Source of the DNA: Gammaproteobacteria bacterium
Lineage (GTDB): Bacteria; Pseudomonadota; Gammaproteobacteria; Steroidobacterales; Steroidobacteraceae
DNA length: 64,000 nt
Assembly (NCBI GenBank): GCA_016882265.1
Contig: VGVB01000008.1
Coordinates: 5,862-69,861 of the forward strand
Reading direction: 5' to 3'
The translations under genes and the position numbers were made by a program. Under the pieces are notes generated by a model, which ran no database searches, was not told where the DNA came from, and saw only the letters and a program-made list of their open reading frames with translations. Positions 3,976 to 62,316 of this stretch are shown piece by piece. Numbering within the stretch: the first letter of the stretch is position 1; every line of letters starts with the position of its first letter.

Positions 3976-5460
3976 ATGGGCAAGCCCACCGGCTTCATCG
4001 AATTCCTGCGCGAAGTGCCGGTCGATCGCGCGCCGCGAGAGCGCATCCGCGACTGGGACGAGTTCCACCTCGAGCTCGAGGAGCGCCGGCTGCGCCAGCA
4101 GGGCGCGCGCTGCATGGACTGCGGCACGCCGTTCTGCCACACCGGACTGCTGCTGAACGGCGCGGCTTCCGGCTGCCCGATCAACAACCTGATCCCGGAA
4201 TGGAACGATCTCGTCTACCGCGGCCTGTGGCATGAGGCGCTCACGCGCCTGCACCGCACCAACAACTTCCCCGAGTTCACCGGCCGGGTCTGCCCGGCAC
4301 CGTGCGAGGGCTCCTGCGTGCTCGGCCTGCACGCGCCGGCGGTGACGATCAAGAACATCGAGTGCAGCATCGTCGAGCGCGGCTGGGAGGAGGGCTGGAT
4401 CCTGCCCGAGCCGCCGGTGGCGCGCACCGGCAAGAAGGTCGTCGTGATCGGTTCCGGTCCCGCGGGACTGGCCGCGGCTGCGCAGCTCAACCGTGCCGGG
4501 CACCTGGTCACTGTGCTCGAGCGCGCCGAGCGGCCGGGCGGCCTGCTGATGTACGGCATCCCGAACATGAAGCTCGACAAGCACGAGGTCGTCGCGCGGC
4601 GCCTGCGCCTGCTGGAGGCCGAGGGCGTCAAGTTCATCTGCAACGCCAACGTCGGCGAGAACGTCGAGGCGCAGTTGCTGCTGACGGACTTCGACGCGAC
4701 GGTGATCTGTACCGGCGCGACGCGCCCGCGGGATCTGCCGGTCGAGGGGCGCGGACTCAGTGACGTGCTGTTCGCCATGGACTACCTGACCGCGGCGACC
4801 CGCGCGGTGCTGGCCGGCACGCCGGACGAGACGCCGCTGCACGCCCGCGGCCGCGACGTCGTCGTGATCGGTGGCGGTGACACCGGCACCGACTGCGTCG
4901 CCACTGCGCTGCGCCAGGGCTGCCGCTCGCTGCTGCAGTTCGAGATCCTGCCGCGACCGCCGGCCGAGCGGGGCGCCGACAACCCATGGCCGGAATGGCC
5001 GCGGATCCAGCGCAGCGACTACGGCCACGAAGAAGCGGCGGCACGTTTCGGCAGCGATCCGCGCGTGTACCAGACCACGGTGCAGCGCTTCAACGGTGAC
5101 GCCGACGGCAACGTGCGCGAAGTCGTCACCGTCGAAGTCGACTGGGCGCGCGACGCCGAGGGCCGCTGGCAGTCGCGCGAGCGAGCCGGCAGCGAACGTG
5201 TGCGACCGGCGCAGATCGTACTGCTGGCGCTCGGTTTCCTCGGCCCGGAAGCGGGGCTGCTGCGCGACTTCGGCGTCACCACCGATGCGCGCGGCAACGT
5301 GCAGGCCGGCCACGGCAGTTACGCCACCAACGTGAAGGGCGTGTTCGCCGCCGGCGACTGCCGCCGCGGCCAGAGCCTGGTGGTCTGGGCGATCCACGAG
5401 GGCCGCGGCGTCGCCCGCGAGGTGGATCGTTACCTGATGGGCAGCACCGATCTGCCGTAG
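3976..5460 (+). CDS. gltD: glutamate synthase small subunit (NADPH-dependent oxidoreductase)
   Basis: 494 aa. Fe-S Cys motifs '[10 protein letters not shown]' and 'CPAPCEGSC'. Two dinucleotide-binding folds, '[14 protein letters not shown]' and '[13 protein letters not shown]'. Immediately follows gltB. Confidence 0.95.
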
Positions 5461-5513
5461 CGGCGCGCGGCGGCCGGATCGCAAACCCAAGCCCGGCGGA
5501 GCGACGAGTTCCG

Positions 5514-6371
5514 TCAGCAGTCCGCACTCGGCGGAAATTCCCGGTACTGCGGGAGGTCGTCGGCGATGTCGAACCACGGCGCCTTCGAGCCGACGAAGAT
5601 GTGCAGTTGCGGGCGCAGGCCGGGATCGTCATCCAGCGAGCCCATCGGAATGCCGACCGGGCCGGCGGCGGGGCGCGGCAGCGAGGAGCCGCAGTCGACG
5701 CAGAACGCGTAACTGAAACGCGGCGCTTCCGGCAGCGTGAATGTCTGCAGCCGATCGGCGCCCCGCGTGTAGGTCACGGCCGCAAAGAGATAGGAGCCAT
5801 GCGCCGCCGAGCGGGCCCGGCGGCAGCGACTGCAGTGGCAATTGACACTTCGCTGCGGCGCGGCGGCGAGGCGATACGCGACTGCCCCGCACAAACAACT
5901 TCCGCGCGGCGTACCCGGCGGGTCCGACGATCGGCACTCCGGAAGAGACGGCGCCGCAATGCCCGGCGGATAGCAGTCGAAGCGCGGCAGACGATCGGGG
6001 ATCTCGTACCACGGGGCTTTCGAAGCGGTGAAGATATGCGCCAGCGGACGAATGCCGGGGTCCTCGGTGAAGTTCCCGGCTGGCACGAAGACCTGACCGT
6101 CGACGGGGTCGCCGGGCACCACCGAACCGCAGTGCCGGCAGAAACAGCGGTATGCACCAGGCGCTGATTCCCAGCGGGCCCGGTGAGTCGTGCCGGACAG
6201 GCGGAAGTTCGCCACCCGGCCGGCCAGATAGGTCGCAAAGGCCGACCCATGTGCCTTGCGGCACCGCGAGCAATGGCAATGCACCATCGACTCGAACGGC
6301 CCGTCGAGTTCCCAGGCGACGGCTCCGCACAGGCACTGCGCACTCGCCATGTCAGTCTCCGGTCTCCACAA
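5514..6371 (-). CDS. GFA-family (glutathione-dependent formaldehyde-activating / CENP-V-like) zinc protein with two tandem GFA domains
   Basis: Two internal copies of the GFA Cys pattern: 'CLCGAVAWEL...HCHCSRCRKAHGSAF...CRHCGS' and 'CLCGAVAYRL...NCHCSRCRRARSAAHGS...CVDCGS'. The start could be 6371 or the Met at 6350. Confidence 0.8.
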   Translation of the reverse strand: MWRPETDMASAQCLCGAVAWELDGPFESMVHCHCSRCRKAHGSAFATYLAGRVANFRLSGTTHRARWESAPGAYRCFCRHCGSVVPGDPVDGQVFVPAGNFTEDPGIRPLAHIFTASKAPWYEIPDRLPRFDCYPPGIAAPSLPECRSSDPPGTPRGSCLCGAVAYRLAAAPQRSVNCHCSRCRRARSAAHGSYLFAAVTYTRGADRLQTFTLPEAPRFSYAFCVDCGSSLPRPAAGPVGIPMGSLDDDPGLRPQLHIFVGSKAPWFDIADDLPQYREFPPSADC

Positions 6372-6449
6372 CGGACTCTACGTGGCTGCGACCGTGCTCT
6401 CAACGAGATCCGGCGGAGCGACTGCGCCGGCGCCCGGGTGGCGGCACGC

Positions 6450-7562
6450 TCACGCCCGATGCGCCCGCGCCAGGTACTCCCGCCCCTGCATCTCGTGCAA
6501 TCGGCTGGCCGTGCGCCGAAACTCGAAGGCGAGGCGCTGGCCGCGGTACAGGTCATCGGGCGTGGCCGCGGCGCAGGACAACAACAGCTTGACGCCGCGG
6601 TCGTAGAACTCGTCGACCAGCGTGATCAGGCGCCGCGCGGCATCGTCGGCCAGCGCATCGAGTGCCGGCACGCCGCTGATCAGCACTGTGTGGTAGCAGC
6701 GTGCCAGCTCGATGTAGTCGGCAGCGGCGCGCGGCCGCACGCACAGCTCGTCGAAGTCGAACCACACGATGTCCTCGGTCGCCCCGCGCGCCCGCAGGGG
6801 GCGTCCGGCGATGACGATGCGCGGGTCGGCGGTCGCGCCGTCGGCGGCCAGTGCGGCGAATTCCGCGGCGAGGCGCTGTTCACGGTCGGCGACGGCGGCA
6901 CCGAGAAAGGTCGGCAGCCGCTCGAGTTGCCGCAGCCGGTAGTCGTCGGGGCCATCCAGTTCGAGCACCAGGCAATGGCGCTCGAGCAGCGCGATCGCCG
7001 GCAGGAAGCGGGCGCGCTGCAGGCCGTCGCGGTACAGGTTGGCGGGAGCGACGTTCGAAGTCGCGACCAGCGTGACGCCGCGGGCGAACAGCGCCTCGAG
7101 CAGGCCGCCGAGGATCATCGCGTCGGCAATGTCGCTGACCACGAACTCGTCGAAGCACAGCAGGCGGGTGCTGGTGGCCAGATCGTCCGCGACGCGCGCG
7201 AGCGGCTCGGGCCGGTTGCGATGCCGGCGCAGGCCGGCGTGCACGTCCTGCATGAAGCGATGGAAGTGCTCGCGCCGCTTGTCCGGCAGTGGCAGCTCAG
7301 CGCAGAACTGGTCCATCAGGAAGGTCTTGCCGCGGCCGACCGCGCCCCACAGGTACAGGCCGCGCAACGGCGTCACGCGACGGCGCGGAGCGAGCGCGGC
7401 GAGTCCGCGTGCCAGCAACGTCGGCCGTGCGGCGCGCGCCAGCAGCCGCCGGCGCAGATCCTCGAGGCGGGCGATCGCCCGGCGTTGCGCCGCATCCGGC
7501 TGGTGGCCGTGAGCGGCGAGCGCGGCCGTGATCCGGGCCGCGAGCGGCGACGCGCTGTGCAT
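6450..7562 (-). CDS. zapE: AFG1-family ATPase, cell division protein ZapE
   Basis: 370 aa. Walker A 'GLYLWGAVGRGKTFLMD'. Walker B-like 'LLCFDEFVVSDIADA'. Overall AFG1/ZapE layout. Confidence 0.85.
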   Translation of the reverse strand: MHSASPLAARITAALAAHGHQPDAAQRRAIARLEDLRRRLLARAARPTLLARGLAALAPRRRVTPLRGLYLWGAVGRGKTFLMDQFCAELPLPDKRREHFHRFMQDVHAGLRRHRNRPEPLARVADDLATSTRLLCFDEFVVSDIADAMILGGLLEALFARGVTLVATSNVAPANLYRDGLQRARFLPAIALLERHCLVLELDGPDDYRLRQLERLPTFLGAAVADREQRLAAEFAALAADGATADPRIVIAGRPLRARGATEDIVWFDFDELCVRPRAAADYIELARCYHTVLISGVPALDALADDAARRLITLVDEFYDRGVKLLLSCAAATPDDLYRGQRLAFEFRRTASRLHEMQGREYLARAHRA

Positions 7563-7567
7563 CGGTG

Positions 7568-9517
<1,950 letters not shown>

Positions 9518-9518
9518 C

Positions 9519-11114
9519 CTAGAGCTGGTTGTAGTTCGGTCCGGATCCGCCCTCGGGCGTGGTCCAGGTGATGATCCCGTACGGATCCTTGATGTCGCAG
9601 GCCTTGCAGTGCACGCAGTTGGCGGCGTTGATCTGCAGGCGGCGGTTGCCGCTGTCGTCGCTGACCATCTCGTAGACGCCGGCCGGGCAGAACTTCTCGC
9701 AGGGATTTCCGAACTCCGCGGTGCAGCGCGTCACGCAGATCGAGGGATCGGCCACCTTCAGGTGTACGGGCTGGCTTTCCTCATGCGCGTTGCCAGCATT
9801 GAAGACCGCGGCGAGCCGGTCGCGCGGCGGGAGTGTGCGCTCCGTCCAGCCGCGCTCTGGCGTGGCGCCCGCGTCGAGCTGCTGCAGCGCCGTGTGGTTC
9901 TCGTGGTTGGCGAGCGTCCACGGGCTGCGGCCGCCGAGCACGGTCTCGAGCCCGGCATTGGCAAGGCCCACCCACAGACCGCCGCGGAAACCGGGCTTGA
10001 CGTTGCGCACGCGGCGCAGTTCCTGGCCGCCGGCCGACGCGCGCCAGCGCGCATCGAAGCCCTCGGTCGCGCCGCGCTCGACGAGATGCTCCGCGGCCAG
10101 CACGCCGGAGCGGATCGCCTGGTGCACGCCCTTGATCTTCGGCACGTTCAGCGTGCCGGCCGCATCGCCGACCAGCAGCAAACCCGGCGCGTCCATGCGC
10201 GGCAGCGACTGCCAGCCGCCCGCCGCGATCGTGCGTGCGCCGTAGCCGAGCAGTTCGCCGCCCTCGAGCAGCGGCCGGACGCTCGGGTGATGCTTGAACT
10301 GCTGGAACGCCTCGAACGGGCTGAAGCGCGGATCACGGTAGTCGAGCCCGACGACGAAGCCGAGGTACACGCGATCCTGATCGAGGTGATAGAGAAAACT
10401 GCCGCCGTAGGTGCGCGCATCGAGCGGCCAGCCGATCGTGTGGCGGATCAGTCCCGGCTCTGCGCGACCCGCAGGAAGCTGCCACAGCTCCTTGAAGCCG
10501 AGCCCGTAGGTCGGCGGCGAACAACCGTCCGCCAGCTTGAGGCGCGCGATCACCTGCTTGGTGACGCTGCCGCGGCAGCCCTCAACGAGCACGGTCGTGC
10601 CGGCATGGATCTCGGCGCCCGGCGTGTGATTGGGCCCGGGCGTGCCGTCCTTGTTGAGCCCCATGTCGCCGATGCGCACGCCGCGGACGCGGCCGTCGTC
10701 GGCGTAAACCGCCTCAGCGGCGGCGAATCCGGGGAAGATATCGACGCCGAGCGCCTCGGCGCGGGTCGCCATCCAGGCGGCGAGCAGCCCGAGCGAGACG
10801 ATGAAATTGCCCGCGTTGTGCATCTGCGGCGGATTCGGCATCCACCAGCTCCGCCGCCGGGTCAGCAGGCGGAACTCGTCGCGCGCCGCCGGCACGCAGA
10901 TCGCGGGCGGCGACTCGCGCCATTCCGGCAGCAGGGCATCGAGCGGTCCGGGTTCCATGACGCAGCCGGACAGGAGCTGCGCGCCGACCGCCGAGCCCTT
11001 CTCCAGCACGCAGATACTGAGCTCCGGTTGAAGCTGCTTCAGGCGGATCGCGCAGGCGAGACCGGCCGGGCCAGCGCCGACCACGACCACGTCGTATTCC
11101 ATCACCTCAGTCAT
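9519..11114 (-). CDS. electron-transfer flavoprotein:ubiquinone oxidoreductase (ETF-QO)
   Basis: 531 aa. FAD fold 'YDVVVVGAGPAGLACA'. C-terminal 4Fe-4S region 'CPAGVYE...NCVHCKACDIKDP...TWTTPEGGSGPNY'. Confidence 0.93.
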   Translation of the reverse strand: MTEVMEYDVVVVGAGPAGLACAIRLKQLQPELSICVLEKGSAVGAQLLSGCVMEPGPLDALLPEWRESPPAICVPAARDEFRLLTRRRSWWMPNPPQMHNAGNFIVSLGLLAAWMATRAEALGVDIFPGFAAAEAVYADDGRVRGVRIGDMGLNKDGTPGPNHTPGAEIHAGTTVLVEGCRGSVTKQVIARLKLADGCSPPTYGLGFKELWQLPAGRAEPGLIRHTIGWPLDARTYGGSFLYHLDQDRVYLGFVVGLDYRDPRFSPFEAFQQFKHHPSVRPLLEGGELLGYGARTIAAGGWQSLPRMDAPGLLLVGDAAGTLNVPKIKGVHQAIRSGVLAAEHLVERGATEGFDARWRASAGGQELRRVRNVKPGFRGGLWVGLANAGLETVLGGRSPWTLANHENHTALQQLDAGATPERGWTERTLPPRDRLAAVFNAGNAHEESQPVHLKVADPSICVTRCTAEFGNPCEKFCPAGVYEMVSDDSGNRRLQINAANCVHCKACDIKDPYGIITWTTPEGGSGPNYNQL

Positions 11115-23920: not shown

Positions 23921-23949
23921 TTGACGGCCACCCCGCCGCGGCCGATACT
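23921..23949 (+). promoter_or_regulatory. sigma70-like promoter candidate, TTGACG-N17-GATACT, for icmF
   Basis: TTGACG at 23921-23926 and GATACT at 23944-23949, with a 17-nt spacer. It ends 20 nt upstream of the ATG at 23969. The track's ORF start at 23921 is the TTG of the -35 box. Confidence 0.4.
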
Positions 23950-23968
23950 GCTCGCAGTTATCTTACTC

Positions 23969-26900
23969 ATGGGTAACATCGTGGGTCAACCGGTCCGGCG
24001 GGCGATCGGCGCTGGTGCGGCGACGGTGACCGCGGCGGACCGGCGCGGGCCGCTGCGCTTCGTCAGCGCGGCCTCGCTGTTCGACGGCCACGATGCCGCG
24101 ATCAACGTCATCCGTCGCGTGCTGCAGGCGCACGGCGCCGAGGTCGTGCACCTCGGCCACAACCGCAGCGTGGCCGAACTGGTCGACGCCGCGATCCAGG
24201 AAGATGCCGACGCGATCGCGATCAGCAGCTACCAGGGCGGGCACAACGAGTACTTCCGCTACCTGGTCACGCAGCTTCGCGAGCGCGGCGCCGGGCACGT
24301 GCAGGTAGTCGCTGGCGGCGGCGGCACGATCGCGCCGGACGAGATCGCCGCGCTCGAAGCGGCCGGCGTGGCGAAGATCTACACGCCGGACGACGGCCTG
24401 AAGCTCGGCCTCGACGGCATGATCGAGGACGTGCTGCAGCGCGTCGGCGCGGTGCTGCGGCCGGCGTTCGCCGGCGACCGGGTCACGGTGGACGATCCGG
24501 TGGGGCTGGCCCGCGCGATCACGGCGCTCGAACTGGACCGCGACGGCCCGGCGGGAGCCCGCGTCCGCGCGCTCGCCGCCAGCGCTGCGACGCGGCCACC
24601 GGTGCTCGGCATCACCGGCACCGGCGGGGCGGGCAAGTCGACGCTGACCGACGAGCTGCTGGCGCGGCTGCTGCGCTGCTTCCCGGAGAGTCGTTTCGCG
24701 GTACTGGCCATGGATCCGACCCGGCGTCGCACCGGCGGTGCGCTGCTCGGCGACCGCATCCGCATGAATACGCTGGCCGGCGGTCGCGTGTTCATGCGCT
24801 CGCTGGCCACGCGGCGCCAGCATCTCGCGACCAGCGCGGTACTCGCCGACGCCGTGCGCCTGACCCAGGCGGCCGGTTTCGATCTGGTGATCGTTGAGAC
24901 CGCCGGCATCGGCCAGAGCGACAGCGAGATCATCGATCGGGTCGACCTGTCGCTGTACGTGATGACCCCGGAGTACGGCGCCGCTACCCAGCTCGAGAAG
25001 ATCGACATGCTGGACTTCGCCGATTTCATCGCGCTGAACAAGTTCGAGCGGCGCGGCGCCGAGGATGCGTTGCGCGACGTGCGCCGGCAGGTGGCGCGCA
25101 ATCGCGGGCGCACCGGTGAGCCAGCCGAGCGGCTGCCGGTCTATCCGACGATCGCGAGCCAGTTCAATGACGCCGGCGTCAACGCCCTGTGTGCGGCATT
25201 GTGTGCGCGGCTCGACGCCGGCTGGGGCAGGCTGCGGTCGTGGCAGCCGGTGGATCTGGCGCCGCTCGGCCCGCCGCGTCGCGAGCCGATCGTGCCGGCG
25301 GAGCGCGGTAACTACCTGGCCGAGATTGCCGCCGGCGGGCGGGCCGCGCGCGAGCGCGCCGGGCAGGCCGCTGCCGCGGCCGCTCGCGCGCATGGTCTGT
25401 ACCGCGCGCTGGCGACACTCGCGGACCCGGCGCTGCCCGCGCCTCTGGAATCTCATGCCGCGGCTGCGGCCGTAGTAGCCGACGGCACGCTCACCCGGCT
25501 GCGCCAGGAGTACGACGCGGCGCTGGCCGCGATCGGCGCCGAGGGCCTCGCGCTGCTGCGTGCCTGGCCGGAGCGCGCGCGCGCGGCGACGGCCGAGCGC
25601 TACCAGTACGAAGTCCGCGGCCAGCCGATGCAGGGTGACAACTACACGGCCACGCTGGCCGGACTGCGCCTGCCGAAGATCGCGGTACCGCGGCTGCAGG
25701 ACTGGGGCGAGCAGCTCGCCTTCCTGCTGGCCGAGAATCTGCCGGGCTCATTTCCGTACACCGCCGGTATCTATCCGTACCGGCGTGAGGACGAGGATCC
25801 GACGCGCATGTTCGCCGGCGAGGGCATGCCGGAGCGGACCAACCGGCGCTTCCATTACCTCGCGCGCGGGCATCGCTCGGTGCGCCTGTCGACCGCGTTC
25901 GACTCGGTGACGTTGTACGGCGAGGATCCGGACGAGCGCCCCGACATCTACGGGCGGATCGGCAACTCCGGCGTGTCGATCGCGACGCTCGACGACCTGA
26001 AGCGCCTGTACTCCGGCTTCGACCTGTGCGCGCCGTCGACCTCGGTGTCGATGACGATCAACGGGCCGGCGCCGATGATCCTGGCGATGTTCCTGAACAC
26101 CGCGATCGATCAGCAGGTCGAGCGCTGGCTGCGGGAGCAGGGGCGCTGGGCGGCCGCGGAGGCCGCGCTGCGGCAGCGTTGCGCCGGCCGCGAACGGCCG
26201 GTCTATCGCGGCGAGCTGCCCGCCGGACATGACGGCAGCGGCCTCGGCCTGCTCGGCGCCAGCGGCGCCGACATCGTCGACCGGGAGACCTATGAGCGCA
26301 TCCGTGCGGACGCGCTGGCCCGCGTCCGCGGCACCGTGCAGGCCGACATCCTGAAGGAAGACCAGGCGCAGAACACCTGCATCTTCTCCACCGAGTTCGC
26401 GCTGCGGCTGATGGGCGACGTGCAGCAGCACTTCATCGACCAGCGGGTGCGCAACTTCTACTCGGTGTCGATCTCCGGCTATCACATCGCCGAGGCCGGC
26501 GCGAACCCGATCACGCAGCTCGCGTTCACGCTGGCCAACGGCTTTACGATCGTCGAGTACTACCTCGCCCGCGGCATGGCGATCGACGACTTCGCGCCCA
26601 ACCTGTCGTTCTTCTTCTCGAATGGCATGGATGCGGAATACGCGGTGATCGGGCGCGTCGCCCGGCGCATCTGGGCGCGCGCGCTGCGCGAGCGCTACGG
26701 CGCCGGCCCGCGCAGCCAGATGCTCAAGTACCACATCCAGACCTCGGGCCGCTCGCTGCATGCCCGCGAGATCCAGTTCAACGACATCCGCACGACGCTG
26801 CAGGCGCTGTATGCGCTGTTCGACGGCTGCAACAGTCTGCACACCAATGCCTACGACGAGGCGCTGACGACGCCGACCGAGGCCAGCGTGCGCCGCGCGG

Positions 26901-27430
26901 TCGCGATCCAGCTCATCATCGCGCGCGAGCTGGGCCTGAACTTCAACCAGAACCCGTGGCAGGGCTCGTTCGTGGTCGGCGAGCTGACCGACCTCGTTGA
27001 GGAAGCGGTGTGGAGCGAGTTCGAGCGCCTGGCGGCGCGCGGCGGCGTGCTCGGCGCGATGGAGACGATGTACCAGCGCGGCCGGATCCAGGAAGAATCG
27101 CTGACTTGGGAACGGAAGAAGCACGATGGCAGCCTGCCGCTCATCGGCGTCAACACCTTCCTGCCGGAGCGCCCGGATGCGGACGAGAACCGCGTGGCCG
27201 AGCTGATCCGCTCGACCGGGGAGGAGCGGCAGGCGCAGGTGGCCGGCGTGCGCGCCTTCGATGCCGCCGACCCGGCGCGCCAGCAGGCGGCGCTGGCGCG
27301 GCTGCAGCAGGTCGCCGCCGCGGGCGGGAACCTGTTTGCCGAACTGCTGGACACCGTGCGCTACGCCTCGCTCGGGCGCATCACCCGGGCCCTGTACGAG
27401 GTCGGCGGCCAGTACCGCCGCGGGATGTAA
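23969..27430 (+). CDS. icmF: fused isobutyryl-CoA mutase IcmF (B12-binding domain + MeaB-like GTPase + mutase catalytic domain)
   Basis: N-terminal B12 motif 'FDGHDAAINV'. Central G-protein P-loop 'GITGTGGAGKSTL'. C-terminal methylmalonyl-CoA-mutase-like barrel ('AGIYPYRRE...FAGEG', 'TNAYDEALTTPT'). The start is ATG 23969 (preferred) or TTG 23921. Confidence 0.92.
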   Translation: MGNIVGQPVRRAIGAGAATVTAADRRGPLRFVSAASLFDGHDAAINVIRRVLQAHGAEVVHLGHNRSVAELVDAAIQEDADAIAISSYQGGHNEYFRYLVTQLRERGAGHVQVVAGGGGTIAPDEIAALEAAGVAKIYTPDDGLKLGLDGMIEDVLQRVGAVLRPAFAGDRVTVDDPVGLARAITALELDRDGPAGARVRALAASAATRPPVLGITGTGGAGKSTLTDELLARLLRCFPESRFAVLAMDPTRRRTGGALLGDRIRMNTLAGGRVFMRSLATRRQHLATSAVLADAVRLTQAAGFDLVIVETAGIGQSDSEIIDRVDLSLYVMTPEYGAATQLEKIDMLDFADFIALNKFERRGAEDALRDVRRQVARNRGRTGEPAERLPVYPTIASQFNDAGVNALCAALCARLDAGWGRLRSWQPVDLAPLGPPRREPIVPAERGNYLAEIAAGGRAARERAGQAAAAAARAHGLYRALATLADPALPAPLESHAAAAAVVADGTLTRLRQEYDAALAAIGAEGLALLRAWPERARAATAERYQYEVRGQPMQGDNYTATLAGLRLPKIAVPRLQDWGEQLAFLLAENLPGSFPYTAGIYPYRREDEDPTRMFAGEGMPERTNRRFHYLARGHRSVRLSTAFDSVTLYGEDPDERPDIYGRIGNSGVSIATLDDLKRLYSGFDLCAPSTSVSMTINGPAPMILAMFLNTAIDQQVERWLREQGRWAAAEAALRQRCAGRERPVYRGELPAGHDGSGLGLLGASGADIVDRETYERIRADALARVRGTVQADILKEDQAQNTCIFSTEFALRLMGDVQQHFIDQRVRNFYSVSISGYHIAEAGANPITQLAFTLANGFTIVEYYLARGMAIDDFAPNLSFFFSNGMDAEYAVIGRVARRIWARALRERYGAGPRSQMLKYHIQTSGRSLHAREIQFNDIRTTLQALYALFDGCNSLHTNAYDEALTTPTEASVRRAVAIQLIIARELGLNFNQNPWQGSFVVGELTDLVEEAVWSEFERLAARGGVLGAMETMYQRGRIQEESLTWERKKHDGSLPLIGVNTFLPERPDADENRVAELIRSTGEERQAQVAGVRAFDAADPARQQAALARLQQVAAAGGNLFAELLDTVRYASLGRITRALYEVGGQYRRGM

Positions 27431-49503: not shown

Positions 49504-51618
<2,115 letters not shown>

Positions 51619-51621
51619 GCG

Positions 51622-52995
51622 ATGCAGATCCGCTGCATCCAGGACTGGTTGACGCGGCGCCGGGCGCAACGGGCCGCGGACCGTCGCGACGAGCTCGCCT
51701 TCCTGCCGGCCGCGCTCGAACTGCGGGACACTCCGCCAGCGCCCGCCGGCCGGGCCGTGCTGTGGACGATCGCCGGCCTTTGTGTATCCGCGGTCGCCTG
51801 GGCCAGCGCGGGGCGGGTCGATATCGTCGCCGTCGCGCCCGGACGTTTGCTGCCCGCCGGTCATGTCCGGACGGTCCAGTCGCCCGGCAGCGGAACCGTA
51901 CGCGCGATCCACGTCCGTGATGGCCAGCAGGTAGTGCAGGGCCAGGTCCTGATCGAGCTCGACCCGGCGCTGGCGGAGGCCGACCGGACCGCCAGCGAGG
52001 TCCGCCTGCAGGGTATGGAGTTCGAGCTGGCCCGCCAGCGCGCCTTCCTCCACTGGCTCGGGGCCGCCTCCGCGGAGCCCGGGTCGCGGCTCGGCGTGCG
52101 CGAGCTGCCGGCGCTGCAGCGCGCAATCCTCGAACAGTCCGCTGCGGAGTATCAGAGCCGGCGGGCGGCAAACCGGCAGGCCATGCTCCGGCGTGAGGCC
52201 GACCGCGAGGCGACGCGACGCCAGGTCGGCAAGCTGGAGCGGACCTTGCCGCTGGTGGCGCGGCGGACCGCAGCGGTCCGCGAGCTGGCCGAGCGCGACC
52301 TGCTGCCGCGGCTGCAGCATGTCGAGCTCGAGCAGCAGCGCATTGCAGTGGAAGAGGACCTCGCGGCCGCGCGCGCCGGGCTGGCCTCGATCGAGGCCGC
52401 GATCGCCGAGCTGACCAGTCAGCGACGCGAGCTCGAATCCGGCACGCGGCGCACGACACTGCAGCGGATCGCGGAACTCGAGCAGCTCGTGGCAGAAGCC
52501 TGGCAGCAGCAGTTCAGGACCGCGCGGCTGGTTGCACAACAGGCGCTGGTGGCACCGGTCGGAGGCGAAGTGCAGCAGCTTGCCGTACACACGATCGGCG
52601 CCGTCGTCGGGCCCGGACAGCCGCTGCTGGTCATCGTCCCGGCGGGCGAACCACTCGAGGTGGAGGCCCGGATCCTCAACCGCGACATCGGTTTCGTCCG
52701 CGAAGGTCAGGCGGCCGGCATCAAGGTCGAGGCGTTTCCATTCACCCGTTACGGAATCCTCCCGGGGCAGATCGTCGCGATCAGCGAAGACGCGACTCCG
52801 GACGAGCAACTCGGTCCGGTGTATGTCGCCCGGGTCCGGCCGCAACGCGCGGTGCTGGAAGCCGAGGGCCGGCCGGTCGCGCTGACGTCCGGAATGGCCG
52901 TCAGCGTGGAAATCCTGACCGGCCGCCGCAGTCTGCTCGACTACGTGCTGTCGCTGTTGTCACGGCACCTGCAAGAAAGCGTACGCGAGCGCTGA
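51622..52995 (+). CDS. HlyD-family type I secretion periplasmic adaptor
   Basis: 457 aa. 'FLPAALELRDTPPAP', a single TM, long coiled-coil, C-terminal 'LLDYVLSLL'-type tail. Confidence 0.92.
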   Translation: MQIRCIQDWLTRRRAQRAADRRDELAFLPAALELRDTPPAPAGRAVLWTIAGLCVSAVAWASAGRVDIVAVAPGRLLPAGHVRTVQSPGSGTVRAIHVRDGQQVVQGQVLIELDPALAEADRTASEVRLQGMEFELARQRAFLHWLGAASAEPGSRLGVRELPALQRAILEQSAAEYQSRRAANRQAMLRREADREATRRQVGKLERTLPLVARRTAAVRELAERDLLPRLQHVELEQQRIAVEEDLAAARAGLASIEAAIAELTSQRRELESGTRRTTLQRIAELEQLVAEAWQQQFRTARLVAQQALVAPVGGEVQQLAVHTIGAVVGPGQPLLVIVPAGEPLEVEARILNRDIGFVREGQAAGIKVEAFPFTRYGILPGQIVAISEDATPDEQLGPVYVARVRPQRAVLEAEGRPVALTSGMAVSVEILTGRRSLLDYVLSLLSRHLQESVRER

Positions 52996-53030: not shown

Positions 53031-53492
53031 ATGTTGCGCAGTCTGAATGTGTTCGTTGCGATCCTGGTCACGGCTGGAACCGTCACCGTACTGGCCTGCG
53101 GCACGCTGCTGACCCTGCTGTTCACGCGGCTGTCGCAGATATGGCCCGTACTGGCACTGGGTTCCCTGTCCGCCGGGTACTACGTCGCTGGCATCGTCGG
53201 CCTCGCCGTTCCGACCTGGATATGGTGGCGGCATGGGCTGATTCCGCCGGCGGTGCTGCCCGGCTGTGAGAAGCGGCTGCGGCGCGGCGAACGGATGCTG
53301 GCCGTGGCGAATGTCGTATTCCTGGTGAGCTTCGTCGGACCGTTCGTGGCGTCCGCCATCATGAAGAACCCGCTGCTCCCCTGGCTGGCGATCTACGGCT
53401 TCCTCGCGCTGCCGCTGTGCGTGGTGGCCTGGTGTCTCGGCCTGCACTACATCAGTTCTTCACGCGATCGCTCGAGGGCCTGGCGACGCTGA
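53031..53492 (+). CDS. hypothetical small integral membrane protein (about 4 TM helices)
   Basis: 153 aa. GGGGAGAG SD 5 nt upstream of the ATG. Four hydrophobic segments (about aa 5-31, 37-60, 85-107 and 112-137). No recognisable family motif. The region looks less GC-rich than its flanks. Confidence 0.65.
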   Translation: MLRSLNVFVAILVTAGTVTVLACGTLLTLLFTRLSQIWPVLALGSLSAGYYVAGIVGLAVPTWIWWRHGLIPPAVLPGCEKRLRRGERMLAVANVVFLVSFVGPFVASAIMKNPLLPWLAIYGFLALPLCVVAWCLGLHYISSSRDRSRAWRR

Positions 53493-53544: not shown

Positions 53545-54300
53545 ATGGTCACGAACGAAGAATATGCAGCGATGTCGGCGGCTGTGTACGGCGCCGCACC
53601 GGGCAACCGTCTGGTCGTCGAGGGCTGGACCGCCGACGAGGTCGGGTTGCCGCCCTGGCTGTTCCTCGGTTTCAAGTACGGAATCTATACGCGGGGCACC
53701 GGCAGCGAACGCGAGATCGTGATCGCCTACGCCGGCACGGATCGCGGCTTCAATCCGGACCTGCTGTCGGGCTTCTTCGGCGTCAGCGGTCAGCCTCTGC
53801 CATCGCAGTTGACTCAGGCCGCGGTCGTTTACGCAATGGTGCGCCGGGACTTCCCCGGTGTACCGGCCGAAAACATCTCGTTTACCGGCCACTCGCTCGG
53901 CGGCGGGCTGGCCTCGGTGATGGCGGTGTGGTTCGACCACCCGGCGACCGTGTTCGCGCCCGCGCCGTTCGAGTACTCGGCCCAGGGCAGTGCCGCGGAG
54001 TGGACCGCCGATCTGGCGCGATTCGCGCTGCTGATCACACCCGGGCTGCAGAATGCGGACGACCTGCTGGTCTTCGATCCGGACCGCGATTTCGCAGCGC
54101 GCGAAGCCAACGTGACCAGCTTATCGATCACGGGTGAAGTGCTCGAGCGATTCCTGAGCTGGCTGCCGACGATCGAAGGCACGGCTCATGAAATCGATCT
54201 CGGCGACAGCCCGCTCAGTCCGTTCCAGCGACATGGTATCGACCTGCACGCGGCAACGATCATGGACGAGGACTTCCGCCGGGCGCTGGCCGGACTGCCG
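53545..54300 (+). other. lipase (class 3 / family I.3-like) alpha/beta-hydrolase domain of the RTX protein (approximate bounds)
   Basis: 'EIVIAYAGTD' strand followed by the nucleophile elbow 'GHSLGG'. The candidate catalytic His lies in 'QRHGIDLH' (His230 codon at 54232-54234). The acid residue is not assignable by eye. Confidence 0.6.

Positions 54301-62316: not shown

Follow-up and report, generated by a model that had tools for sequence, protein, structure and literature searches.

A giant RTX protein with an N-terminal Tle-like hydrolase head in a Steroidobacteraceae locus, and the exported partner family that accompanies such heads elsewhere

Substrates of type I secretion systems (T1SSs) carry their secretion signal at an uncleaved C-terminus, and the customary classes are exoenzymes, host-directed RTX (repeats-in-toxin) toxins, adhesins and small bacteriocins. 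Certain toxin domains occur both in interbacterial effectors and at the N-terminal ends of large RTX proteins, and T1SS toxin and immunity has been proposed for FrpC/FrpD as well as for N-terminal domains of the Smlt3024 type on such proteins (Bayer-Santos et al., 2019; PMC6759196). Among effectors of type VI secretion systems (T6SSs), the lipase Tle of Enterobacter cloacae relies on the catalytic residues Ser341, Glu393 and His448 (PMC11470151). Here we analyse a stretch of 64,000 nucleotides, referred to as the window, from a Gammaproteobacteria bacterium of the family Steroidobacteraceae (GenBank assembly GCA_016882265.1, contig VGVB01000008.1, positions 5,862 to 69,861 of the forward strand), and in particular a giant protein of 2923 amino acids (aa) encoded at its positions 53545-62316. 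A preliminary description of the window had reported this open reading frame (ORF) as the fusion of a lipase-like head to a body of RTX and immunoglobulin (Ig)-like domains, and Pfam, AlphaFold2 and Foldseek agree with it. Our interest lies less in the single giant than in the module that such heads form with a family of small exported proteins, here called LP, and in the apparent loss of that partner from the window lineage; the LP partner is the main new finding.

The head measures about 390 aa, made up of a hydrolase core of ~240 aa and a subdomain of ~150 aa (aa 241-390) that is conserved together with the core across alignments of homologues. The hydrolase elbow does lie within the ~250 N-terminal residues originally taken as the head, which is itself longer than was stated. 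The motif IVIAYAGTD (aa 58-66) and the elbow FTGHSLGGGLASVMA (aa 113-127), with the nucleophile Ser117 in GHSLGG, were found where they had been placed. AlphaFold2 modelled aa 1-390 from 44 homologues with a predicted local distance difference test score (pLDDT) of 90.4 and a predicted template-modelling score (pTM) of 0.91, and a Foldseek search with this model returned a sole strong PDB match, the E. cloacae effector Tle (9CYS_A, E 1.1e-6), generic esterases coming next at E ~1e-3. A family profile built from 45 heads reached Tle among PDB sequences at E 9.9e-14 (7UBZ and 9CYS) and, across ~80 residues, fungal class-3 lipases (1DT3; E 1.5e-6). Searched as a single sequence, the head retrieved nothing relevant from the PDB, and only the profile of the family and the Foldseek comparison led to Tle. 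An alpha/beta-hydrolase had been anticipated in the preliminary description, and both profile search and structure prediction point to it. The Pfam model Lipase_3 (PF01764) covers 22 residues at the elbow, scoring 20.5 bits on the whole protein and 23.4 bits on the head alone against a threshold of 22. The model PF26363 ('Phospholipase-like'), from a newer Pfam release, stands as a precomputed match at E <= 1e-5 on the record of the protein, and likewise on those of nearly all head homologues.

Conservation singles out three residues among the 45 homologues, namely Ser117 (45/45), Glu198 (40/45) and His230 (44/45). In the model they come after strands 111-116, 190-195 and 212-217, the canonical positions of nucleophile, acid and histidine. 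Of the Ser-Asp/Glu-His triad suggested earlier, the serine and the histidine are conserved, and the acid is predicted to be Glu198, as in Tle, and not an Asp. On the modelled structure the head is a Tle-like hydrolase with a predicted Ser-Glu-His triad, and it would be expected to act as a lipase. The label 'family I.3' is wrong for it, because the I.3 structures 2Z8X, 2ZJ6 and 2QUA match the profile only at positions 393-451, that is, through RTX repeats and never through the catalytic domain. The NCBIfam PueAB match on the giant is similarly confined to RTX (aa 1498-1591).

Heads of this type are widespread. An exhaustive search of 1.84 billion representative proteins found 1021 related clusters, of which 549 at E <= 1e-10. 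Among 206 head-family proteins fetched as top matches, at least 29 are giants of >=2000 aa with an N-terminal head (Ser at residue ~100-142) followed by 28-102 RTX nonapeptides, so that the fusion is not a one-off. Many of the clusters are RTX giants of 2000-3900 aa, all are unnamed in databases, and the giants put through Pfam have a common body of He_PIG, HCBP_related and Cadherin_4 domains. The enzyme forms the N-terminus in every family member, including short ones in which the same head is followed by few RTX repeats. Species-representative genomes contain at least 312 head loci, mainly in Betaproteobacteria (Burkholderiales, Rhodocyclales, Nitrosomonadales and Hydrogenophilales) and also in Xanthomonas translucens, Stenotrophomonas rhizophila, Desulfobacterota and Nitrospira. 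One giant of 3026 aa is encoded in the complete-genome record of Rhodoferax ferrireducens T118 (GCA_000013605.1). The head had no match at E 1e-8 in a tblastn search of 72,556 plasmids, which therefore gave no evidence for plasmid-borne close relatives. In one metagenome contig (locus L002; ERZ25039527 contig_64568, 1-21899) a distant relative, with a head 52% identical to that of the window, lies amid genes for ParA, RES, a ParD/ParE toxin-antitoxin and a phage integrase, surroundings that make a mobile element its probable location. Frameshifts, probably assembly errors, break up the large genes of L002. A 2010 review of RTX proteins does not mention such an N-terminal head, and Zhang et al. 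(2012) list Tox-ABhydrolase domains and not the head-RTX arrangement. The head family is large, visible in databases and experimentally uncharacterised, and its N-terminal fusion to RTX repeats is common.

The partner family came to light in R. ferrireducens T118, where three head genes (796, 498 and 3026 aa) alternate with small signal-peptide ORFs at positions 4272-10282 of the locus (L003; CP000267.1, 2988979-3006475). A hidden Markov model (HMM) seeded from these small ORFs, built in three rounds and run over 85 related loci, defines LP as proteins of ~190-260 aa with a signal peptide, often a lipobox, and then the motif sWKEEVLLhDG.kI.V.R. LP was found in 79 of the 85 loci. All 115 LP ORFs lie on the strand of the nearest head gene, and 98 of them are found immediately 5' of a head gene, at a distance below 600 bp that is typically below 60 bp. 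No fewer than 14 of the loci have two or three head genes each in the ~20 kb of sequence covered, and the LP-head pairs within one locus mostly diverge like random pairs, with identities of 16-29% between LPs and 33-39% between heads among the scorable pairs. LP and head identities are correlated (Spearman 0.49, permutation maximum 0.11), and LP is the faster evolving of the two, with a median identity of 22% vs 36%. A collection of 5.8 billion proteins contains 3715 LP clusters, all unnamed, and no model in Pfam or NCBIfam matches LP. The Rhodoferax locus differs in one further respect: the gene after the ABC exporter encodes a 445-aa protein with a weak match to EryCIII-like glycosyltransferases, not an HlyD, and the three LP-head pairs come next.

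In its tight linkage, its partner exposed to the periplasm and diverging faster than the enzyme, and its arrays of dissimilar pairs, the LP-head module resembles an effector-immunity system, in which LP would be the cognate immunity protein. Identification of LP as an FrpD-like or an ankyrin Tli-like protein is unsupported, the LP model having no PDB match better than E 0.14. The six loci that lack LP comprise two with the head at a contig edge, the contig of the window itself and three copies of an orthologue of the giant with 81% identity. The most parsimonious account is that the LP part disappeared from the window lineage, whose head stayed intact and constrained. The preliminary description was silent on the absence of this near-universal partner, and also on a small membrane protein encoded just 5' of the giant at 53031-53492, here called TM153.

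TM153 matches no family in Pfam or NCBIfam and is extremely rare, with 3 clusters among the 5.8 billion proteins. In the 81% orthologue it is found at the same position with 77% identity and a ratio of non-synonymous to synonymous substitution rates (dN/dS) of 0.305, which marks it as a real gene. Its origin can be read from the nearest relatives. Two of these loci, L002 and L087 (head 46% identical), have the gene order hlyD - TM150/156 - LP - head, and in a third, the short-read assembly L086 (head 50% identical), a single polypeptide unites TM153-like helices, an extra transmembrane (TM) segment and an LP domain. The TM-then-LP order of a fourth, L007, is apparently that of the L086 fusion, in a region fragmented by frameshifts; its giant of 3142 aa looks colinear with the window protein. 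Adjacency in L002 and L087 and fusion in L086 argue that TM153 and LP are functionally linked. TM153 is a candidate immunity or accessory protein. Membrane immunity proteins with four helices guard against pore-forming colicins, and by analogy TM153 alone may protect its producer.

The giant gene starts with ATG, immediately preceded by the Shine-Dalgarno sequence GGAGGG. An identical protein is found in the metagenome-assembled genome record MBM5811182.1 ('Gammaproteobacteria bacterium'), annotated as 'hypothetical protein', and a second identical copy in an independent SRA assembly. The orthologue, of 2905 aa, is colinear, has the same neighbours and occurs in three further runs; compared with it, dN/dS is 0.20 for the whole giant gene and 0.21 for the head. 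Identical independent copies, the colinear orthologue and dN/dS together establish that the gene is real and no assembly artefact. With dN/dS of the head near that of hlyD (0.175) and a dedicated HlyB/HlyD pair adjacent, the sequence evidence is that the locus is functional. The features of the cassette are as follows.

49504-51618 (+): HlyB-type T1SS ATP-binding cassette (ABC) exporter, 704 aa, with Peptidase_C39, ABC_membrane and ABC_tran domains
51622-52995 (+): HlyD-family T1SS membrane-fusion adaptor, 457 aa (TIGR01843, 348 bits)
53031-53492 (+): TM153, candidate immunity or accessory protein, 153 aa, with about four hydrophobic TM-like segments
53545-62316 (+): giant RTX protein, predicted T1SS substrate, 2923 aa
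53545-54264 (+): head, alpha/beta-hydrolase core, aa 1-240 (AlphaFold2 model, Foldseek, profile and conservation)
53893-53895, 54136-54138 and 54232-54234 (+): codons of the predicted triad residues Ser117, Glu198 and His230 (conservation and model)
54265-54714 (+): head, C-terminal helical/beta subdomain, aa 241-390, modelled confidently within one unit
54715-57819 (+): RTX blocks interrupted by modules of non-RTX type, aa 391-1425, with an HCBP_related cap at aa 1384-1411
57820-58095 (+): He_PIG (PF05345) Ig-like domain 1, aa 1426-1517
58096-60537 (+): RTX blocks, aa 1518-2331, HCBP_related caps at aa 1802-1839 and 2280-2305
60538-60822 (+): He_PIG (PF05345) Ig-like domain 2, aa 2332-2426
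61252-61536 (+): He_PIG (PF05345) Ig-like domain 3, ~aa 2570-2664, matched in segments 8 (two stretches) and 9 (one), start approximate
61537-62076 (+): last RTX block, aa 2665-2844, HCBP_related cap at aa 2811-2844
62077-62316 (+): C-terminal tail of ~79 aa, presumed uncleaved T1SS secretion signal from its place after the last RTX block and cap

The exporter scores 990 bits with TIGR01846 (HlyB) vs 384 bits with TIGR01842 (PrtD) and has an N-terminal C39-like domain (CLD; Peptidase_C39, E 4e-12) in which the catalytic Cys is replaced by Thr (motif 'TDTGLLG'), so the pairing with a HlyB-type exporter that had been proposed holds. An exact-sequence look-up of the window HlyB protein found no record. 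The giant gene has hlyD and TM153 on its 5' side and the convergent xseA on its 3' side, the cassette being placed between der and xseA within a conserved housekeeping run (rlmN, hisS, yfgM, bamB, der); the rest of the 64 kb is likewise housekeeping, with gltBD, leucine catabolism and secDF in addition to that run. GC content at third codon positions is 0.82-0.84 in hlyD, TM153 and the giant gene, 0.87-0.94 in the neighbours and 0.93 in hlyB, and the lower values of the first three suggest that the cassette was acquired as an island. Among the window ORFs scanned, no gene for TolC, LapG (BTLCP), LapD, a T6SS or an acyltransferase was seen. The 3' ends of the giant gene and xseA overlap by 38 bp (62279-62316), as they do in the independent assemblies L001 and L004. 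Beside the leucine-catabolism genes, positions 23921-27430 (+) encode a 1169-aa IcmF-like fusion of B12-binding, MeaB GTPase and methylmalonyl-CoA mutase domains.

The giant carries RTX repeats C-terminally and begins without a signal peptide, and it would be exported through the T1SS. Pfam HemolysinCabind matches it at E 2e-123 in at least 28 stretches, at aa 391-1425 in every segment, and a regular expression finds 58 nonapeptides in 14 blocks. The body had been described as RTX blocks interleaved with modules related to hemolysin-type calcium binding and with three Ig-like domains. These are all there, as four HCBP_related caps and three He_PIG domains (E 2e-44), although the body is not only beta-roll. 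One unit of RTX plus cap matches the RTX domain of CyaA at E 8e-25. The non-RTX insert at aa 481-700 has only a marginal PDB match (E 0.011). Within it, a conserved module (aa 485-570, ~nt 54997-55254) follows the first RTX block in short and giant members alike, with the pattern '...DxDGxGxI...W.S.D...L.I...I.I.N...G.LGI.L' and equivalents in P0001 and the Rhodoferax 796-aa protein. No cysteine-protease autoprocessing domain was found in the giant. Its composition is unusual, with 4 Lys in 2923 residues (0.1%), 4.9% Arg and 15.8% Asp plus Glu, while Lys amounts to 0.4-2.6% in the products of neighbouring genes and 0.3-2.7% in other giants of the head family. Lys depletion as a special signal of the giant was rejected, being mostly explained by low Lys genome-wide.

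What the data show is the architecture of the giant, its homologies and conservation, the purifying selection on it and the linkage of the genes; lipase activity, export, target and the immunity role of LP and TM153 are added by reasoning in the mechanism sketched here. HlyB and HlyD, together with a TolC-type outer-membrane channel encoded elsewhere, would thread the unfolded 2923-aa protein out of the cell, C-terminus first, and extracellular calcium would fold the capped RTX blocks into a long rod bearing the three He_PIG domains, which probably binds the surface of a target. The N-terminal head would emerge last and, as a Ser117-Glu198-His230 hydrolase of the same lineage as antibacterial Tle, would attack membrane glycerophospholipids. 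Because LP faces the periplasm across the family, the head would be expected to act in the Gram-negative periplasm, of competitors or kin, in a bacteriocin-like manner. In the window lineage, TM153 alone might protect the producer, protection might be encoded elsewhere, or self-intoxication might no longer occur; as an alternative to protection by TM153 or from outside the window, the target may have changed.

That the giant is a T1SS-exported phospholipase toxin used in competition is our preferred reading, held at even odds. The earlier suggestion that a toxin or competition factor is a better guess than a plain adhesin stands up, given Tle as the nearest solved relative and the family-wide coupling to LP. 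A fuller proposal would be that N-terminal-lipase RTX proteins and LP constitute a widespread, undescribed T1SS interbacterial toxin-immunity system, in which the body targets competitors, the Tle-like phospholipase is brought to the periplasm and LP is the cognate periplasmic immunity protein, anchored by a TM153-type module in one clade, while the window lineage, having dropped LP, points to a new membrane-embedded immunity or a changed target; this we offer tentatively, as a possibility somewhat more apt to fail than to stand. Several observations weigh against the toxin-immunity interpretation. The substrate of a T1SS ends up outside the producer, no import route into the target periplasm is evident, and the giant has no hydrophobic translocation or pore segment (maximum Kyte-Doolittle mean over 19 residues, 1.44). 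The AlphaFold2 model of LP (pLDDT 71, beta-rich) points to no fold or known immunity protein in the PDB, its best match having E 0.14. The co-variation of LP and head could arise if the pair duplicated in tandem, with no need for the two proteins to bind each other. No LP was detected in the 64 kb of the window, either by tblastn (E < 10) or by the three-round HMM in six frames, and the strongest toxin-immunity argument is therefore not directly applicable to the window locus. A literature search found no paper on the head family.

The enzyme could alternatively be imagined at work on eukaryotes, the RTX/Ig body binding protists or other eukaryotic cells (predators or hosts), the phospholipase head damaging their membranes and LP shielding the envelope of the producer from stray enzyme. 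Eukaryotic cells are the targets of classical RTX toxins whose enzymes are N-terminal or embedded, among them CyaA and MARTX with its phospholipase ABH domain. The carriers are, by their record titles, bacteria that live free in freshwater, soil and groundwater and are exposed to grazers, and the window lineage manages without LP while its head is still under purifying selection. The near-absence of Lys from the giant (4/2923) has also been weighed in this connection, but low Lys is largely genome-wide (0.4-2.6% in neighbours). We nevertheless think an anti-eukaryotic role unlikely, as the nearest characterised relative of the head is antibacterial, the giant comes without a pore or translocation domain, an acyltransferase gene or an autoprocessing protease domain, and strict one-to-one, co-varying, arrayed LP-head pairs typify interbacterial polymorphic toxins.

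Those arrays of divergent pairs, attached to proteins of very different lengths, are also hard to square with nutrition, which is part of another explanation: an adhesin or matrix component of the cell surface that stays on or near the producer, like RTX adhesins of the LapA type, and whose lipolytic tip degrades environmental lipids for nutrition or surface conditioning, with LP, in the periplasm or at the outer membrane, anchoring it or helping it to fold. The body does resemble RTX adhesins in its size, in its He_PIG/cadherin-like Ig domains and in its HlyB-type transporter with a CLD, and foldases encoded beside family I.1/I.2 lipase genes are known. E. cloacae Tli is reported to activate its lipase as well, and the lipoprotein FrpD has the N-terminal domain of FrpC, an RTX protein, as its binding partner (PMC6759196). 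However, a substrate exported in one step by a T1SS would not meet a periplasmic helper, the LP fold is unlike FrpD or any PDB entry, and the enzyme itself forms the N-terminus in every family member; as the preliminary description had implied, the giant contains no retention module, its N-terminus being the hydrolase, and no LapG or LapD is encoded by the window ORFs scanned. An adhesin of this kind seems to us improbable. Far less credible still is an inert head that merely plugs the T1SS channel as a bulky N-terminus and so retains an adhesin. A folded N-terminal domain does retain RTX adhesins (PMC7777525), and the Lipase_3 match spans 22 residues only, but the modelled 390-aa fold is that of an entire, intact hydrolase, short members with the same head have no long body to retain, and Ser117 is invariant, with Glu198 and His230 nearly so, across 45 diverse homologues. 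All 13 family members with an elbow other than GHSLGG were inspected, and the serine is kept in 12 of them, including 5 of the 5 with >=2000 aa, where it occurs as GHSLGA; the thirteenth is a 337-aa fragment in which no elbow motif was seen. Loss of catalysis is thus very unlikely.

The head family fits none of the usual T1SS substrate classes neatly. With ~1000 clusters at 50% identity, it is coupled to a dedicated exported partner family that carries no annotation. If LP and head are toxin and immunity protein, giant RTX proteins would join the T6SS, contact-dependent inhibition (CDI) and the Xanthomonadales-type type IV secretion system (X-T4SS) as vehicles of bacterial warfare, a role that was previously a hypothesis only, for FrpC/FrpD. 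A new question would then arise, namely how the last-secreted end of a ~300 kDa protein is delivered across the outer membrane of the target. The LP-less window lineage amounts to a natural experiment on the role of LP, and cultured carrier strains, such as R. ferrireducens T118, Polaromonas sp. JS666, X. translucens CFBP 2541 and S. rhizophila DE0483, make the system testable.

Judged by sequence, the giant belongs to neither family I.3 nor the Tle6 effectors, nor is it a LapA-type adhesin or a pore-forming cytolysin, and each comparison brings out both shared and distinct traits. With Tle of E. cloacae ('Tle6' group; 7UBZ, 9CYS) it shares a homologous lipase domain, the GHSLGG elbow, the Ser-Glu-His pattern and, N-terminally, Y/W and 'GT...D' motifs that are conserved. 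Delivery of Tle is through a T6SS, and it is paired with the ankyrin-repeat immunity protein Tli, whereas the head of the giant is the N-terminus of an RTX protein encoded beside a T1SS, without VgrG, PAAR or adaptor linkage among the window ORFs scanned and without an adjacent ankyrin Tli; the partner of its family, LP, is beta-rich, matches nothing in the PDB and is missing from the window. The head has, moreover, an insertion of ~30 aa between Ser and Glu and the extra subdomain of ~150 aa. Family I.3 lipases (PML of Pseudomonas sp. MIS38, 2Z8X; TliA of P. fluorescens; LipA of Serratia, 2QUA) likewise combine an N-terminal enzyme with the GHSLGG elbow, a C-terminal RTX beta-roll and T1SS export. 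Their catalytic domains are not detectably homologous to the head, and they are proteins of ~50-65 kDa with a Ser-Asp-His triad and a PrtD/AprD-type ABC exporter without a C39-like domain, in contrast to the 2923 aa, predicted Glu and HlyB-type exporter found here.

Among RTX T1SS substrates of the HlyA/CyaA class the giant finds its place through nonapeptide calcium-binding repeats and adjacent genes for an ABC exporter and a membrane-fusion protein. CyaA of Bordetella and MARTX are also large T1SS substrates that combine enzymes with RTX blocks and use a HlyB-type exporter with a CLD. The giant differs from them in lacking a hydrophobic pore or translocation region, an acyltransferase gene and a cysteine-protease autoprocessing domain; its enzyme is a lipase and not a cyclase, and the ABH domain of MARTX is internal, not N-terminal. 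Pore-forming RTX cytolysins are set apart by the same hydrophobic pore region, and no HlyC-type acyltransferase was seen among the genes neighbouring the giant. The giant RTX adhesins LapA, MpIBP and SiiE are similar in size, C-terminal RTX repeats, Ig-like extenders and an exporter with a C39-like domain. They differ in that a conserved hydrolase takes the place of a retention module and its LapG site at the N-terminus of the giant, lapG and lapD are missing from the window ORFs scanned, and RTX blocks occur throughout the body of the giant and are not gathered at the C-terminal end. Neisseria FrpC/FrpD and the Smlt3024-like domains offer a further parallel: in both, a toxin-like N-terminus homologous to effectors of another secretion system is carried by a large T1SS RTX protein, and a partner (lipo)protein, the proposed immunity protein, is encoded just 5' (Bayer-Santos et al., 2019; PMC6759196). 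Their N-terminal domain is of another kind, with no function assigned, vs a lipase in the giant, the T1SS immunity role is there a proposal, and the LP model matches neither FrpD nor Smlt3025 in the PDB; the plan of a toxin-like N-terminus on an RTX giant, preceded by the gene of a dedicated exported partner, is nonetheless the one that the LP-head loci follow.

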